A stretch of 60,000 nucleotides of DNA from Malacoraja senta (taxonomy: Eukaryota): positions 18,540,001 through 18,600,000 of the forward strand of contig CM075989.1 in the NCBI GenBank assembly GCA_038087875.1. The letters run 5' to 3'. The number at the start of each line of letters is the position of its first letter. The stretch's first letter is position 1. Both the position numbers and the translations under genes were made by a program. Shown in pieces: positions 18,165 through 41,000 of the stretch. The notes under the pieces are model-generated. The model was not told where the DNA came from and made no database searches. It saw only the letters and a program-made list of their open reading frames with translations.

Positions 18165-20645
18165 TTTTTATTTTTTAAATTTTTTTTAAATTTTATTTAT
18201 TAGAAGCACATTACGTTACAACCACATCCATTAGTACTCGTCACATATATTTTATTATAATTAATGTACTCCGTTTGTTTTGTTTTTTACATTAATAAAG
18301 GGAGAGGATAAGATTAAGAGAAAGAGGAAAGTGAAGGAAAAGGTGAAAGTGTAAAAAAAAAAAAAACCGTGACAACAAGAAAGAACAAAGACCCTATAAG
18401 AAAAAGAGTTAAGATGTAGACCCTAGAAAAGAAGAAGAAAAAGAGAAAGGAAAAAGAGAAGAACAAATACCTTTTTTATCAGCATCCCGCAAATGGGACA
18501 TACCAAATCTCCAATTTTCATCCCCCCCCCTACCCGACCTCAGTTTTTTTTTAAGTACCTTTGCACCCTATATTTGTAATAATTCTATAAATGCCGACCA
18601 CGTCAGATGGAAGTGATCTGGTTTACCTGCCAGGAGGAGTCTTATCTCTTCTAGGTGTAATGTTTCGAACATATTTGAAATCCACATGTTTATAGTTGGT
18701 ATTGGAGCGTTTTTCCAAAATTTTAGGATTAACTTTTTTCCAGTTATTTACCCATAGTCTATTGGTTTCTTTTGAAACACATTTAGTTCTGGACTATCTT
18801 CCGTTATTCCGAAGATAATCCATTCTGCTTTGGGTATCAGTTTTATTTTAAATAATTTTGTAAAGATTTCAAAAATGTCAATCCAAAATTTTTGAATTTT
18901 TGTACAAAAGACAAATGAGTGCGCTATAGTAGCTTCTTGAGATTGACATTTATCACAGTTTGATGATATATTTGGGAAAATTTTATGGATTTTAGTTTTA
19001 GAATAGTATAATCTACGTAAAATTTTGAATTGTATTAAAGTATGTCTTACATTTATCGAACATTTATGCACTTTTAATAAGTATTCATTCCACTTTTCCT
19101 TTGAGATTTTAATAGCTAAATCTTGTTCCCATTCTCTTCTAATACCTTCCGTAGATGGTATTTCTACATTTAAGATAATATTATACAAATATGATATTGA
19201 ATTTGCTGAATCAGCTTTTATCTGCATTGCATCATCCAAAACATCTGCTGAGCTATTATAATGATCTTTTATATATTTTTTCAAATAGTCACATATTTGA
19301 AAATATTTAAAATATTGATTATTTCCAAGTTTATATTTTATTTGTAATTGCTGAAATGATAGTAATTTTCCAGTTTCATACAGGTCACCGAACGTTTTAA
19401 TTCCTAGTCTATCCCATTGTATGAAGGCTTTATCTGTAGTAGAGGGATTAAACAAATGGATTAACTATGGGAGATAAAAGTGAAAAATTTCTTAATTTTA
19501 AATTTTGTTTTATTTGTTTCCAAATTCTGATTGTACTATGTATGATTGGGTTCTTATTATAGTTTATGTTATTCAGTTTCGTTGGTGAGAGGAGGATCGC
19601 TCCAATGTTTCTAGAGGAGCAGTCCTCTCTCTCCATTACAATCCAATCCACTTGCTGAGCAAAATTATCCATCAGTTGAATCATATTTTTAATATTTACT
19701 GACCAATAATAATACATGAAATTAGGGAGTGCTAAGCCCCCTAGTACTTTGGGTTTGTTCAGGTGTGTTCTTTGTATTCTATGTGATTTATAGTCCCATA
19801 TAAAATTAGTAATGTCTGAGTCCAGTTTAAAAAAAAACTTCTTTGGTAAGTATATAGGAATCGATTGAAATAGGTATAAAGTTAGTGGAAGAAAGATCAT
19901 TTTTATTGCATTTATTCGGCCTATTAAAGACATCGGGAGCGTTTTCCAAAATTTAATTAATGTATTTAATTTATTAAGTAAAGGCTCAAAATTTGCTTTA
20001 AACATACCTTGATATGTTCTGGTAATTTCGATTCCCAGGTATTTAAATTTTTCTGTAGCTATTTTAAAAGGGAATTTTAAAAGATGTGTTGAGTCTTTCG
20101 GTTTTATTGACATAATTTCACTTTTATTCCAATTTATTCTGTATCCAGAAAAAGATCCAAAGTCTTCAATTAAGTTTAATATATTTGGTATAGTGATTTG
20201 AGGTTTTGTAATGTACAGTAATATATCATCCGCGTATAAAGATATTTTATTATTTGAGTATTTAGTATTATACTCATGGATATCGGGATGTATTCTAATT
20301 TTTTCTGCTAGCGGTTCAATTATAAGAGCAAACAACTGTGGTGATAATGAGCACCCTTGTCTATTTCCCCTTGATAGTTGAAATTTCGAAGTTAATATAT
20401 TATTAGTTAATATTCTAGCTGTAGGTTTATTATATAGTAATTTAATCCATAAAATAAAATTCTTTCCCAATTGGAATTTTTCTAATACTTTATCCATATA
20501 ATTCCATTCTACTTGATCAAATGCTTTTTCAGCGTCCAGCGAAATAATTGATAATTCTTGTTCTTCAAATTTATGTGAATGCACTATATTGAGTAAACGT
20601 CTCATATTATTAGCTGAGCATCTCTTCGGGATAAACCCCGTCTGA
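18165..20645 (-). mobile_element. 5'-truncated L1-clade LINE with poly(A) tail
   Basis: 15-bp TSD gcccaagcgaaatat (18150-18164 / 20665-20679), AATAAA and A-rich tail at 18165-18201, AT-rich ORF2. Confidence 0.93.
18568..20643 (-). pseudogene. L1 ORF2 (RT + CCHC domain), truncated and frameshifted near 19450 and 18770
   Basis: QTGFIPKR, SLDAEKAFD, GNRQGCSLSP, ISLYADDILLY, YLGI, CDKC-x8-H-x4-C. Confidence 0.92.
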
Positions 20646-22019
20646 AATATGCACCTTATATTCCGCCCAAGCGAAATATAAGGTGGAGTTCCTACAATTT
20701 GCGCTGGGCCTCACTCTGCCCAGGACAGAAAGGTTACAACTGGTTGCTTCACTACACGCATCATTAAATCCTGACACATTAGTGTCACTTGAATTTGACC
20801 TAGAAATATGTAATAAATTCTCTAATAAATTATCTAATAAATTCTCACATCATCAAAACTTAACATTTAAACAGGCAAGCTTGCAGCACAGAACAAAACA
20901 ATTTTTTTTAAACCCTCAGTGATAGCTTTACTTGAAATGATCATTAAGAAATGTCATAGCTGTAGTCAACTTGACAGACAATCTACAGGTCATCTACTTA
21001 AAGAATTTATTACATTGCAGGATGAATTGTACAATTACTGACTCGTTGGAACAGCAGTTAAACAGTCAAAATGGATTGATATTCCAATGTGATAACACAG
21101 CTCTGTGACTTGCTTAGAATCAATTGTTGGGCCATTCCCAGCCAGAGTTGAGATAATCTCATGTTATATCAAAGCACATCCTTCGTGTTGTGAGAGAGCT
21201 TCTCGCAACTGCAGCATTGGGTTTCCAAGTCTCTGATAATAGTCTGCATGAATCTATACCATCGTATCATCAATCTGTCCTCTGCTTCCAAGTACCAGCC
21301 CTGCAGGCATTCCTTGGTCTAAGTCAATGAGCTGGATACCCCCCCCCCCCCCCCCCCCCATCCTTGTACTTGCCTCAACTACCTTCTCTGGCACCTTGCT
21401 CCATAAACCCACCACCCTCCGAGTGGAAAAATCTGTTCCTCGGGTTCCTATGAAATCTTTCCCCACTCACTTTAAACCTATGTTCCCTGGTACTTGACTT
21501 CCCTACCTTGGAAACAGAATAGATCAGAGACAGATACAGAATATTGAAACCAGGAACTGCAGATTCAGGTTTACCAAGAAAAGCCACAAAATGCTGGAGT
21601 AACTCAGTGGGTCGGGCAGCATCCCTGATAATGCTGATGGTACTTCACTGTACCCAGGTATATAGCTACATGTGACAATAGTCACATGTACCTACTGTAT
21701 ATACCTGGGTACAGTGAAATTCTTTGCTTTGCATGCACTGCAGTAAATTCATACAACAGATAAGCACAAGCATAGATAAGTACAAAGGCAATTGTCTAAT
21801 ACAGTAGACTTAACTGAGTTGCCACATTTCTGGCTCCCACAAAGTTTCAAGAGTGCAGCCTTAAAGGCCCATTGGAATGGATCTGCAGTACCTTGTGTCC
21901 ACAGTTAGTTTCTACAATGTCAATGGATGAGCCAGCCCTCGGCCTTTGTAGGGCCCTCGGACACCAGCTTGCAGCGCTCAGCAAGCACAGAAAGGACTCC
22001 ACTTGTTGATGTGACAAGA

Positions 22020-29061: not shown

Positions 29062-29955
29062 AAAAGCACCTGTGGTCAGAATCGAACCAGGTTCAAGAGT
29101 GAGAGAATATGTGTCAATGGGCTGGGATAACATTCTGCTGTCGGGTGCGTGGCTGTTGTTCAAGGCCCTCGGGTTGTTGCGGGAGGGTTGTGCTGAGAAC
29201 AATAACAAGCAGCACTGGGCCAAACGTGGAGGTGGCTGCAGATGATCAGCGTGAGGTGGGAACTGAGCCGGTCCCTTATTTAAGAATAAAGTTTCAGAAA
29301 CGTTGCTTCCAAAGGATGGTAAATGGTTCAATGTGACTCACTACAGGATTAGCCCATTAGTCAGAACATACAGCAATGAAGCCGGGAAAACTGCTTCTGG
29401 GCAAGGTCATTAGTTCCCTCCAGTCAGCAAAGCTGTCTGTTTTTACAGCATCAAATGCATCACTTGTTCCCCTCTACTAACCCTCTCCTCTGCCTGGCAC
29501 AACCTGTCCCCGCCCTCAACGACTTCTCCTTTGACTCCTCTCACTTTCTTCAGGTTTAGTCTAGACATGCGGCGTTGGTCATGTCTGACCCTACCTCACT
29601 ACCCTTGTCCTGTTTACTCCCCCCTATACCAACAGTCAGCCTGAAGAAGGGTCCCAAGCCAAACCCTGTCTGTCCATTCCCTCCACGGTTGCAGCCTGAC
29701 CTGCTGAGTTCTTCCAGTGTTTTGCCTGTCATCGCACCTCAAACAACAAGGGAACAGTCACAACAGGAATGGTGCAGGGAAAGGTGGGGTATGACAACAT
29801 ACAACATCTCCCAATAATCATTTCGCTTGTGATTAAAAGCTTGTGTTCATGAGGAATCAACATATATTTAAATCGCTTCGCCCAACACCTCCGCTCAGTT
29901 CGCATTAATCAACCTCAACCTGATCTCCCGGTGGCTCAGCACTTCAACTCCCCCT

Positions 29956-32900
29956 GCTGTATCTAAATGCACGGAGTATTCGAAATAAGATAAATGAATT
30001 AACGGTGCAATTAAGTACATATAGTTATGATATCGTGGCCACTACGGAGACATGGCTGCAAGGGGATCAGGATTGGGAGTTAAATATAGAGGGGTACTCG
30101 ACAATTAGAAAAGATAGACAGGAAAGAAAGGGAGGAGGGGTGGCCCTTTTAATAAGGGAGGGAATAACGGCAATAGAGAGGAAGGATATTGCGTTGAAGG
30201 ATCAGGATAGTGAAACAGCTTGGGTACAGATAGAGAATAACAAGGGGAAAAAAACACTAGTGGGTGTAATTTATAGACCTCCAAATAGCTGTGACGCTGT
30301 TAGTCAGAACATAAATCTGCAAATAGTTGACGCATGTAAAAAGGGAACTGCTGTAATCATGGGGGACTTCAATTTTCATATTAATTGGGCAAACCAAACT
30401 GAGCAGGGTAGACTAGAGGAAGAGTTTATAGAATGTATTAGAGACGGGTTCCTAGAACAGTATGTCACAGAACCGACAAGGAGGGAGGCAATCTTGGATC
30501 TGGTCCTGTGTAATGAAGCAGGATTAATTAAAAATGTCATAGTTAGGGACTCGTTGGGAACAAGTGACCACAATATGGTCGAATTCCATATTCAAATAGA
30601 AGGAGAGCAGGTTGAAACTCAGGCTAGGGTACTTAGTCTAAATAAAGGGGATTATGAAGGTATGAGGACTGAGCTGATCAAAGTTGACTGGGATAGCAGA
30701 CTCAAGAATAAGACGGTACATGAGCAGTGGTGTACGTTTAAGGATCTACTGTATAACCTTCAAGAAAAATGTATTCCTATGAAGAAAAAAAGGGGTAAGG
30801 GAAAGAACAGTCAGCCATGGCTCAGTAAAACTATAAAGGATAGTATTCGGCTGAAGGCAAGGGCATATAAGGTAGCTAGAGATAGTGGGAGGGTAGAGGA
30901 TTGGGAAGCATTTAAAGGTCAGCAAAAAATAACTAAGAGATTAATTAAGACGGGGAAAATAGACTATGAAAGGAATTTAGCGAACAACATAAAAACTAAT
31001 AGTAAGAGTTTTTATAGCTATATAAAAAGAAAAAGGGTGGCTAAGGTGAACGTTGGTCCATTGGAGGGTGAGACTGGAGAGTTGTTGGTGGGGAACATGG
31101 AAATGGCAAAGGCATTAAACGAGTATTTTGTATCAGTCTTCACCATAGAAGACACAAAAAATATTCCAACGCTGGATAAACAGGGGGCGGTAGGAATGGA
31201 GGAGCTAAATACTATTAAGATCACCAAGGAGGTGGTATTAGGGAAATTAATGAGACTGAAGGAGGATAAATCCCCTGGGCCTGATGGATTACATCCAAGG
31301 GTCTTGAGGGAGATAGCGGTGGGGATTGTGGATGCATTGGTGATAATTTTCCAAAACTCCCTGGAGGCAGGAACGGTCCCAGTGGATTGGAAAATGGCCA
31401 ATGTAACACCTATATTTAAAAAAGGAAGTAAACAGAAGGCGGGTAACTATAGACCGGTTAGTCTAACATCGGTGGTGGGTAAAATGTTAGAGACAATTAT
31501 TAAAGAAACACTAACGGGGCACTTGGATAAACATGACTTCATCGGACAGAACCAGCATGGTTTTGTGAAGGGGAAGTCCTGTTTAACGAATTTGCTCGAA
31601 TTCTTTGAGGAAGTAACAACCCGGGTGGATAAAGGGGAACCGGTGGATGTGGTATACTTGGACTTCCAAAAGGCTTTTGACAAGGTGCCACATAAGAGAC
31701 TATTGCTAAAAATAAAAAATTATGGGATTGGGGGTAATATATTAGCATGGGTAGAGGATTGGCTAACAAATAGGAAGCAGAGAGTGGGGATAAATGGTTC
31801 ATACTCGGGATGGCAACCGGTAACTAGCGGGGTTCCGCAAGGGTCGGTGCTGGGACCCCAGTTGTTCACAATTTATATAAATGATTTGGAGGAGGGAACC
31901 AAGTGTAATATATCAAAATTTGCGGACGATACAAAAATGGGAGGAAAAGTAGGGGATGAGGAGGATAGGAAGAGTCTGCAAAAGGATATAGATAAGCTAG
32001 GTGAGTGGGCAACAACTTGGCAGATGAAATTTAATACTAATAAATGTGAAGTCATTCACTTTGGGAAAAAAAATGATAGGGCAAGTTATTTTCTAAATGA
32101 GGTGGAGCTGCGTTGTAATGCAACGCAAAGGGATCTAGGGGTAGTAGTACATGAATCACTAAAAGTTAGTATGCAGGTGCAGCAAGCAATCAGGAAGGCC
32201 AATGGAGTTTTGGCCTTTATTGCTAGGGGGATTGAGTATAAAAACACGGAGGTCTTGCTGCAGCTGTACACAGTATTAGTGAGACCACATTTGGAATACT
32301 GTGTACAGTTCTGGGGTCCATACTTAAGAAAGGATGTACTGGCCCTGGAGGCAGTGCAGCGAAGGTTTACAAGATTAATTCCTGCAATGAGGGGATTGAC
32401 ATATGAGGAAAGGTTAAGTAGGCTGGAACTCTACTCTTTGGAGTTTAGAAGAATGAGAGGCGATCTCATTGAAACATATAAGATCGTGAGGGGCCTTGAT
32501 CGGGTGGATGCACCGAGGATGTTCCCAATGATCGGGGAAACTAGAACTAGGGGACATAGTTGTAGAATAAGAGGGGGCTCTTTTAAAACTGAGATGAGGA
32601 AGAACTTCTTCACCCAGAGGGTGGTTAATTTATGGAATTCACTGCCCCAGGGAGCAGTGGAAGCAGAAACATTAAATATATTTAAGTCTAAAATAGATGT
32701 TTTTTTAGCTGCCAAGGGGATAAGGGGCTACGGGGAGAGGGCAGGGATATGGACCTAGGTATGGTTAGTATAGTAAGACCTGAGTGATCTCCTGGACAAG
32801 TGTCGATCGCCTGGATTGGGGTCGGAGAGGAATTTCCCGGATTTTTTTCCCGAATTGGACCTGGGTTTTTATCCGTTTTTTTGCCTCCCCCAGGAGATCA

Positions 32901-39654: not shown

Positions 39655-40160
39655 TCAGATGTGAAGCATCAGATGTGAAGCAAAGTTTGTTTTGGTTGAT
39701 AGATACAGCATAGAAACAGGCCTCTTCGGCCCAGCGAGTCCACACCGAACATCGATCATCCGTTCAGATTAATTCTATGTTATCTGACGTTCATATCCAC
39801 TCCCGACACACTAGGAGTAATTTACAAAACCCAGTTAACCAAAAGATACAAAGATGAATGGGAAAGTACATTTAGGGATTGAGAACAAAAGGAGGTGACA
39901 AAGTGATACGTACTAGTTCAATGTGTGGGCAAAGTTCGGATAAGTGGGGGGAAAACGGGAAATAGTCCATTTTTAGCATGAAAAACAAATGGAAAGAAAC
40001 ATACTATGGAAATGGTGAGAGAATGCACTGGTGTGTGATGCAGAGCATCCTGGTTATCCTGGCCCTTCATTCACAAAATAAAATCAATGGTTATACCTCA
40101 TATTTTGCTTGGGCAGCGTACAACCCAGCGGTATGAATATCGAGTAGGAAGGAACTCCTA

Positions 40161-40297
40161 CTTCTTCTTCTTGCGTGTGGCATGCACAGCCTAAAGTTGT
40201 AGGTCAACTTGTTCTATTTGACCTTGTTTGTGCACGTCCGGTTGATTGCATTAGTCGAAGCAGGATGGACCACGTGAAGGTTCCAATCTCCCACCCC
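40161..40297 (-). mobile_element. 137-bp ribozyme-headed SINE-like retroposon with (GAA)n tail
   Basis: 11-bp TSD aggaaggaact at 40146-40156 and 40298-40308; tail gcaagaagaagaag; no tRNA A/B boxes seen. Confidence 0.85.
40244..40297 (-). ncRNA. Predicted minimal HDV-like self-cleaving ribozyme (54 nt)
   Basis: P1 GGGGUGG/CCAUCCU (G1-U wobble), P2 GAUUGGA/UGCAAUC, P3 ACC/GGU, L3 UUCACGU, UUCG mini-P4, J4/2 CUAA. Confidence 0.82.
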
Positions 40298-41000
40298 AGG
40301 AAGGAACTGCAGATGCTGGTTTACGAAGATAAGACACAAAAAGTTTGACTAACTCAGCGGGTCAGGCAGCATCTCTGGAGAGAAGGAATGGGTGACGTTT
40401 CGGGTCGAGACCCTTCTTCAGACTGAGAGGAAGGGGAAAGGGGAACGAGAGAGATATAGACGGTGATGTAGAGAGACATAGAACAAAGGAATGAAAGATA
40501 TGCAAAAAAGTAACGATGATAAAGGAAACAGACCATTGTTAGCTGATTGCTAGGTGAGAACGAGAAGCTGGTGCGACTTGTGTGGGAGAGGGATGGAGAG
40601 AGAGGGAACACAGCAGTTACTTGATGTTAGAGAAATCAGTATTCCTACCACTGAGTTGTAATATTAATTTCTCCAACTTCAAGTAACCTTTGCTTTCCCT
40701 CTCTCTTCATCCCTCCCCATCCCAGTTCTCCGACTAGTTCTACTGTACTCTTGATTAAATATTACCATAGTGCCGCATAGTCACCTTCCCCTCAGCTAAC
40801 AATGAACCATTCTACATTTCATTACCATCTGCTCCGATCTGTCATTTTCCCACCTTGCCCTTCATATCTCTAGATTCAGTCTCCCCTGACTCTCAGTCTG
40901 AAAATGGGTCTCAACACGAAACATCACCCATTCCTTCTCTGCAGAGATGCTGCCTGTCCCGCTGTGTAAAGCAGCATCTGCGGTTCCTTCCTACCCATCA
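40298..41000. mobile_element. Two Penelope 3' fragments in inverted arrangement (minus 40298-40660, plus 40661-40995; upstream piece at 40095-40141)
   Basis: Homology to 33170-33476 and 17520-18164; intact hammerhead core on the minus strand at 40394-40421. Confidence 0.8.

Follow-up and report, generated by a model that had tools for sequence, protein, structure and literature searches.

The window, by which we mean the whole 60-kb stretch of DNA that was analysed, holds on its minus strand a 137-nt element that, to judge from its sequence, is an internally deleted LINE of the NARTc, RIME and R2-SIDE kind, its ribozyme being the parent LINE's own 5′ end. The first 54 bases of the element are predicted to be a self-cutting RNA of the minimal HDV-like type. 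The features of the locus are as follows.

40244..40297, minus strand: predicted minimal HDV-like ribozyme, 54 nt, element positions 1-54, corresponding to the 5′ end of the parent LINE
40291..40297, minus strand: P1 5′ strand; the element begins at G1 (40297), where cleavage is predicted
40282..40288, minus strand: P2 5′ strand; a C-to-G change at 40283, specific to the window copy, breaks one pair
40269..40281, minus strand: P3, the 7-nt L3 (UUCACGU; UYCACGU in other families) and the P3 3′ strand
40262..40268, minus strand: P1 3′ strand; a C-to-U change at 40265, specific to the window copy, leaves a G-U pair
40255..40261, minus strand: the P1.1 G (40261) and a 6-nt stub replacing P4
40251..40254, minus strand: J4/2, whose C at 40254 is the predicted catalytic base; in the LINE, an AUG at 40251-40249 shares the frame of the ORF
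40244..40250, minus strand: P2 3′ strand
40229..40236, minus strand: predicted end-to-end stem, 5′ strand (positions 62-69), derived from the LINE 5′ end
40208..40223, minus strand: junction filler (positions 75-90), which differs among subfamilies and partly coincides with the hot spot of second priming at LINE positions 71-81
40161..40207, minus strand: the last 47 nt of the LINE, with the final codons D-L-Q-L, the stop at 40193-40191, the 3′ UTR and an (AAG)n tail
40181..40188, minus strand: predicted end-to-end stem, 3′ strand (positions 110-117), within the LINE 3′ UTR
40298..40308, unstranded: target-site duplication (TSD), copy adjoining G1
40146..40156, unstranded: TSD, copy beyond the tail
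40298..40447, minus strand: abundant host repeat, not part of the element, which is inserted in its 3′ end

In this copy the joints of the predicted ribozyme are a 2-nt J1/2, a 7-nt L3, a single C-G pair in P1.1, a UUCG stub and a J4/2 reading C-U-A-A. P1 is formed by 40297-40291 with 40268-40262, opening on a G1-U pair, and P2 by 40288-40282 with 40250-40244, six of the seven positions being paired. An earlier sequence-only reading of the locus had placed P1, J1/2, P2, P3, L3, P1.1, the stub and the J4/2 C at 40254 just where we located them on the minus strand, and the 11-nt TSD that it named is exact (40298-40308 and 40146-40156) and adjoins G1. Four bases (40160-40157), probably a decayed tail, lie between the tail of the element and the 3′ copy of the TSD. 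The host repeat beneath the insert, which resembles the HE1/HER1 tail of sharks and rays, has 38 matches in the window, and its empty form continues like the downstream flank. An HDV descriptor run on both strands of the 60-kb window matched this element alone. At E values up to 10 Rfam had nothing on the element, the 29 weak matches that it returned from a 1.5-kb search region all falling elsewhere; ARAGORN found no tRNA on the element, and no host gene was identified around the insert. The feature is confirmed as real and as more than a product of chance.

The window copy departs from the majority of 27 equal-length copies at seven places, three of them in the ribozyme, and the majority P2 is fully paired (7/7, versus 6/7 here). 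When nested structures were folded, the window copy was predicted to adopt a different hairpin and copy L006 to form P1 plus P3. This modelling indicates that the window copy likely misfolds; the impairment suspected in the sequence-only reading is probable, given the broken P2 pair and the predicted misfold, and a mutated dead-end insertion is the best explanation of this copy. The hairpin that had been described downstream of the ribozyme survives in part: its outer stem (gtgcaca/tgtgca) is family-wide and joins LINE 5′-derived to LINE 3′-derived sequence, whereas the inner one (aggtcaa/ttgacct) depends on a change at position 76 in the window copy and was rejected as a family feature.

Elsewhere in the window, a 944-codon stop-free frame with APE and RT (29924-32758, plus strand) is apparently the intact ORF2 of a LINE of another family, and RT and zf-RVT fragments within an AT-rich stretch (18748-20710, minus strand) are probably the remnant of an L1-like LINE. 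A long imperfect inverted repeat at 40574-40729, which collects many sub-threshold Rfam microRNA matches, is likely a fold-back repeat.

A DNA search of the genome (1.94 Gb) returned 2,797 candidates, 40 of which were scored and showed 93-100% identity. With a 22-nt pattern of the ribozyme core, allowing at most one mismatch, at least 8,129 genome matches were obtained, and none with control patterns. We sampled 40 of the first 41 core matches listed, dropping one already in the set; 39 of the 40 were short two-part elements of about 130-145 nt, one interrupted, and several subfamilies were represented. The window subfamily is a minority among them, its junction 24-mer having 419 exact genome matches. 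The multicopy retroposon family postulated from the single copy is borne out by the abundance of the core, the TSDs and the subfamilies. Related sequence, with half of the words, was also present in six of 23 listed sequencing runs of other organisms, under three organism codes. Contigs of two sequencing runs, guessed to be RNA, contain the family and the LINE junction, which bears on neither expression nor ends.

Some copies have features of their own. L375 and L376, a single duplicated insertion, carry a second junction type, in which the LINE 5′ end is retained as far as about position 86 along with a little more of the 3′ sequence; it reflects either an independent or an ancestral deletion at the same hot spot. 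Nine short-element copies at G000:C1:229.15-229.35 Mb were multiplied by tandem segmental duplication, and L033 and L074 are complex fold-back insertions containing 5′-end pieces in both sense and antisense orientation. L216 shares the 19-nt upstream flank of the window copy in the host repeat, and L187 and L243 share a second site there; these shared sites reflect either a site preference or the mere abundance of the target.

The parent LINE was reached through sequencing-run contigs placed along a copy, which in two runs had a loose end at position 91. A motif from this loose end had 333 genome matches (control, 0) that read as the C-terminus of a LINE ORF, and the ORF ends in the element's own last codons. 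Walking upstream led to two near-full-length copies of about 3.05 kb, L099 and L097, which begin with the element's ribozyme (positions 1-74, 92%) and end with positions 91-137, both ends being 88-92% identical. A LINE sharing both ends, which the sequence-only reading had foreseen as the mobiliser, thus exists; the notion of a SINE with a new kind of head fell, since both ends are shared with the LINE and the ribozyme is the LINE 5′ end. The short element outnumbers the LINE about twenty to one, a rough ratio counted with different patterns. A negated pattern for a LINE junction at the wrong place gave three matches, all damaged short copies.

The parent copies are broken, and the ORF frame was read across L097 and L099 and against the reference protein P0001. 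Pfam identified APE (PF14529) and RT (PF00078) on the LINE segments, in a compact single ORF; an RNase H family was detected neither in the four segments nor in four homologs that are intact. The homologs are about 1,000 aa long, many of them on contigs of 3.1-3.8 kb, and the best is 72% identical. No named Vingi was among the protein homologs returned. The C-terminus of the parent LINE resembles that of Vingi. A 2026 review (PMC13708176) describes Vingi as the compact, single-ORF, RNase-H-less sister of Ingi, and on these structural grounds, as read from sequence, the parent LINE is Vingi-like. Of the mobilisers proposed earlier the Vingi-like one therefore stands, sharing both ends, and an RTE parent was rejected, the parent being of the RNase-H-less Ingi-like type. 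The exact ribozyme pattern had no match in metagenome contigs, and homolog scans gave none in viral contigs and 44 loci in prokaryote genome contigs, without a full-length close relative. More distant LINE relatives (L130, L136, L138) have cysteine-rich N-terminal extensions and no ribozyme match near the ORF start.

We scanned 80 metagenome loci of related LINEs (382 kb) for the fold. The strict HDV descriptor matched two of them: in L117 the match lies immediately before the ORF, and in L172 it is on an inverted 5′ piece. L121 was added by a relaxed scan, which did not require the 9-bp P2 seen there, inspection by eye added more F2 copies and the degenerate L107, and no fold was found by the descriptor scans at L103, L105 and L109. 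An HDV-like fold with different stems thus heads three other Vingi-like families, F2, F3 and F4, that are 32-44% identical to P0001. In six sequences from four families 93% of the cells are paired and 10 of 17 pairs are changed on both sides, a count that is partly circular because the descriptor that picked out the F2 and F3 folds requires pairing (their location at LINE starts is not circular) and that is lowered for P1 because MAFFT misplaced this stem in two of the six rows. With this partial circularity, covariation accompanies the fold claimed for the single copy, which is kept both across copies and at the LINE 5′ ends of the unrelated families F2, F3 and F4.

The order of a nested double pseudoknot, P1 (7 bp), P2, P3 (3 bp) and P1.1, is present, as is the conserved core (the L3 bases, C first in J4/2 and the purine wobble at position 1), with a G-G mismatch at position 1 in the F4 copy L121. 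All four clean families keep the catalytic C, the U, C and G bases of L3 and the cleavage site at the first base of the element, and the predicted catalytic C44 is retained in 37 of 38 copies of the window family. P4 is absent in G000, where a 6-nt stub stands in its place, and the P4 regions of F2-F4 measure 18-26 nt. J1/2 is 2 nt here (3 if P2 is read as 6 bp) and 2-3 nt in all families. The frequent changes in the free part of the ribozyme among 39 G000 copies, G8A in J1/2, A32G (which keeps a G-U pair) and U45G/A at the variable J4/2 base, spare the fold; a selection test gave a Fisher p of 0.012, or 0.055 when A32G is counted. Whole-element folding was no better than that of shuffles, as expected for a pseudoknot.

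The 5′ ends were analysed in copies chosen by their junction, that is, by the middle of the element alone: 70 of the first 78 matches listed, after dropping one already in the set and seven from a tandem cluster. In these copies, whose mean divergence is 5.1%, the 5′ ends pile up at G1, as the earlier reading implied: 68 of the 70 reach positions 1-7 and two are truncated. The base directly preceding G1 is T in 37 of the 68 full-length copies. A TSD was found in 48 of the 70 (10-13 nt long in 40) and directly adjoins G1 in 39 of those 48. An extra G ahead of G1 occurred in one independent insertion among the 48 TSD-bearing copies.

Such ends would also fit an internal promoter. The first ~75 nt might be mainly an internal Pol II promoter, comparable to Pr77 in L1Tc, with transcripts beginning at +1 or slightly above it and the ribozyme doing no more than trim or protect the RNA, so that the element would not be promoter-less; this is a possibility that we take seriously and still judge the less probable one. 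It is compatible with all the 5′-end data, the first 77 nt of L1Tc are described as both promoter and ribozyme (PMC3185411, PMC4035085), Kojima 2018 (PMC5786205) expects Pol II transcription of bipartite LINEs, and thousands of copies in several subfamilies imply steady transcription. A capped template, however, should often add a G, and the single insertion with an extra G may be taken to favour, weakly, an uncapped template. Moreover, it is the fold that is conserved between families, and not the sequence upstream of L3. We keep predicted self-cleavage as the preferred account of the G1 ends.

The second feature shared by element and LINE is a complementarity between their ends. Positions 62-69, derived from the LINE 5′ end, are an 8-bp complement of positions 110-117 in the 3′ UTR, and the G000 stem contains the palindrome GUGCAC. 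In all five families examined, the stretch of 30-35 nt that follows the ribozyme is predicted to pair with the final 30-35 nt ahead of the tail. The register is common to the families in spite of unrelated ends: pairing opens 4-7 nt downstream of P2 and closes 6-9 nt short of the tail. The z values of this pairing were −2.6 to −5.6 in F2 (one of four F2 copies gave −1.5 at 30 nt), −2.6 to −2.8 in F4, −2.9 to −4.0 in F5, −2.1 to −2.3 in L117 and −2.5 to −3.2 for the G000 majority; in copy L135 the pairing was not significant. The stems of F2 and F5 are about 20 bp long. Ranked against windows from the element's own body, the true pair was in the top 5% both ways in 5/5 families at 30 and 35 nt; these window sizes were chosen after a first look at the data, and at other sizes F2 fails at 20-25 nt, G000 is marginal at 40 nt, and G000 and F3 fail at 50 nt. 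In a cross-family control the true partner was best in three of five rows. The stem strands of the short element vary by about 2%, versus 18% in the adjoining linker. No compensatory change was seen in the stem within families, and the TG/CG differences of F2 look like CpG decay. It is likely, on this modelling, that the two LINE-derived halves pair into an end-to-end stem which the full LINE RNA forms as well.

Inverted copies of the LINE bear on the same ends. We mapped 70 LINE 3′ ends from the first 72 of the 333 matches, two that were already in the set being dropped, one of them inverted; no full-length LINE was among the 70, three of which run off the locus. Fourteen of the 70 carry an inverted 5′-side piece, always from the first 420 nt and never from the middle, for which the chance under uniform priming is about 1e-11. 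Nine of the inverted pieces start at 71-81 and 11 end at positions 3-19, the sense part lying 1.6-2.9 kb further on. In 9/14 a TSD encloses the entire inverted structure and shares 1-7 nt with the inverted start, as is characteristic of twin priming (PMC2912911). More inversions were present among 30 longer copies, a set that overlaps the first; in one of them the pieces are adjacent (230/232), and one further copy has a rearrangement of a different type. Inverted 5′ pieces also occur in family F2 (L127, L172). The inverted strands stop within the first bases, which independently points to G1 as the end of the template RNA, and end pairing together with inverted 5′ pieces suggests an RNA looped end to end.

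We think it unlikely, without dismissing it, that the end complementarity is incidental, the LINE protein binding both RNA ends separately and the A-rich stretch at 70-81 being simply the easiest annealing site for AT-rich overhangs. The R2 protein is reported to bind both UTRs (PMC6765202), and the dependence on window size, the cross-family control and the lack of compensatory change within families all fit this explanation. What speaks against it is that five families with unrelated ends pair in one register and that the F2 and F5 stems reach about 20 bp. A likely end-to-end stem is the reading we retain.

In engineered Agam-2 constructs, P1-P2 spacers of 0-1 nt gave little or no cleavage and 3 nt gave more (PMC4908430), so the 2-nt J1/2, near these slow lengths, counts against activity. 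The whole ribozyme core is retained in 17 of the 70 junction-chosen copies; so few intact cores are expected after insertion and give activity no support. It would be rather improbable, in our judgement, that the fold is real and catalytically weak or silent, serving as a protein-binding, nuclease-blocking or translation-initiation module for which the short element keeps it. The short J1/2, the one-pair P1.1 and the missing P4 agree with such a module, as does an in-frame AUG, located in J4/2-P2 of the G000 LINE and, in F2 and F4, 3 nt beyond P2; non-catalytic roles have been described for the R2 ribozyme (PMC13708176, PMC6765202). On the other side, the catalytic C, the U, C and G of L3 and the first-base cleavage site persist in the four clean families, L1Tc is reported to be active with one P1.1 pair, and a J1/2 of 2-3 nt common to all families looks like the natural form. 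In the LINE, the AUG inside J4/2-P2 (L099:712-714) precedes the first APE motif by 43 residues, and the first Met of P0001 does so by the same distance; the AUGs after P2 of F2 and F4 were seen in L173 and L121, and F3 has none.

An origin as an ordinary Pol III SINE headed by a small RNA, hinted at by a loose B-box-like stretch at positions 37-45 judged by eye, was most improbable and is refuted by the collinearity of the head with the LINE 5′ end, ARAGORN finding no tRNA and Rfam no family on the element.

We consider it probable that the element consists of LINE ends joined by filler, that its 5′ 54 bases cleave themselves, that the LINE protein copies it in trans and that its ends form a stem. 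The element comprises the first ~75-80 and the last 47 bases of a 3-kb Vingi-like LINE with a short filler between them. Transcription would come from upstream, by host read-through or from a start at or above +1, and co-transcriptional cleavage before G1 would leave a 5′-OH end shielded by the pseudoknot. The LINE protein may then copy the RNA in trans from its 3′ tail by target-primed reverse transcription, the stem holding the RNA 5′ end near the integration site with positions 70-81 beside the 3′ tail. Annealing of the second target strand at 70-81 and copying to G1 would yield the inversions, and a template jump of the polymerase, leaving 47 nt short of the 3′ end and landing near position 80, would yield the short elements with their two junction types; the short RNA so formed would keep ribozyme, stem and tail. 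A stem at the integration site would thus explain the second priming at 71-81, the birth of short derivatives and near-complete full-length insertion. More tentatively, and with somewhat less than even confidence, we suggest that Vingi-type LINE RNAs in general cleave at G1 and loop through a stem between the 30 nt following the ribozyme and the 3′ UTR, which would place both ends at the integration site, the 137-nt element being the minimal loop of P4-less 54-nt ribozyme, closing stem and tail.

Ribozyme-headed deleted LINEs are a kind already described, and some LINEs and SINEs are known to employ HDV-like ribozymes (review, PMC6765202). NARTc (from L1Tc) and RIME (from ingi) of trypanosomes are non-autonomous elements built of the 5′ and 3′ ends of Ingi-group LINEs; ~77 nt at the 5′ end are common with the LINE and form an HDV-like ribozyme with a 3-bp P3 and 1-2 bp in P1.1, and NARTc and SIDER ribozymes cleave at +1 (PMC3185411, PMC4035085). 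The window element differs from them in its parent without RNase H (Vingi-like), its animal host and its 54-nt ribozyme without P4, and neither a stem joining the ends nor inverted 5′ capture is mentioned in the available text on NARTc and RIME. R2 SIDEs and R2/R1 SIDEs of Drosophila likewise join a 5′ HDV-like ribozyme to a LINE 3′ end, are named so because they are not Pol III elements, and have a template jump proposed as one origin (PMC3414825). They are described as site-specific in 28S rDNA, longer (R2Dwi_SIDE, 529 bp) and derived from an RLE-type parent, whereas the window family is dispersed, 130-145 nt long and present in over 8,000 copies. The internally deleted derivatives of Vingi-1_EE in the hedgehog (Kojima 2018, PMC5786205) belong by structure to the same clade and have the same bipartite build.

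The ribozyme itself resembles the minimal HDV-like, or theta, ribozymes (bioRxiv 10.1101/2023.06.13.544163) in lacking P4, in its short J1/2 and in having C first in J4/2. Those come from metagenomes and gut phages and lie next to tRNAs, and the available part of that paper lists no match in human, mouse or protist genomes; the window ribozyme, in contrast, heads a retrotransposon of an animal genome. L1 twin priming also gives an inverted 5′ segment with TSD microhomology, in about 30% of young L1 copies (PMC2912911) against 20% here. In the window LINE, unlike L1, the inverted piece comes from the first 420 nt, 1.6-2.9 kb away from the sense piece, and usually reaches the first bases of the RNA. 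The two pieces of L1 inversions are usually near neighbours.

The literature searched, a body that stops short of Repbase, Dfam and patents, contained no report of the window family, of a Vingi ribozyme, of end pairing or of twin priming with Vingi; for the family and the ribozyme it also leaves out Ruminski 2011, Webb 2009 and Kojima 2011, which could contain either. Within that scope, a ribozyme in the Vingi clade (absent from the 2018 list), an animal genome with thousands of copies of an HDV-like ribozyme that lacks P4, and a non-LTR retrotransposon RNA whose two ends pair would each be new. Why only a few clades form two-ended derivatives was stated as unknown by Kojima 2018 (PMC5786205), and the predicted end-to-end stem bears directly on this question. 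If the loop is true, it would explain why the Vingi clade yields two-ended short elements, and inversions only from the extreme 5′ end.
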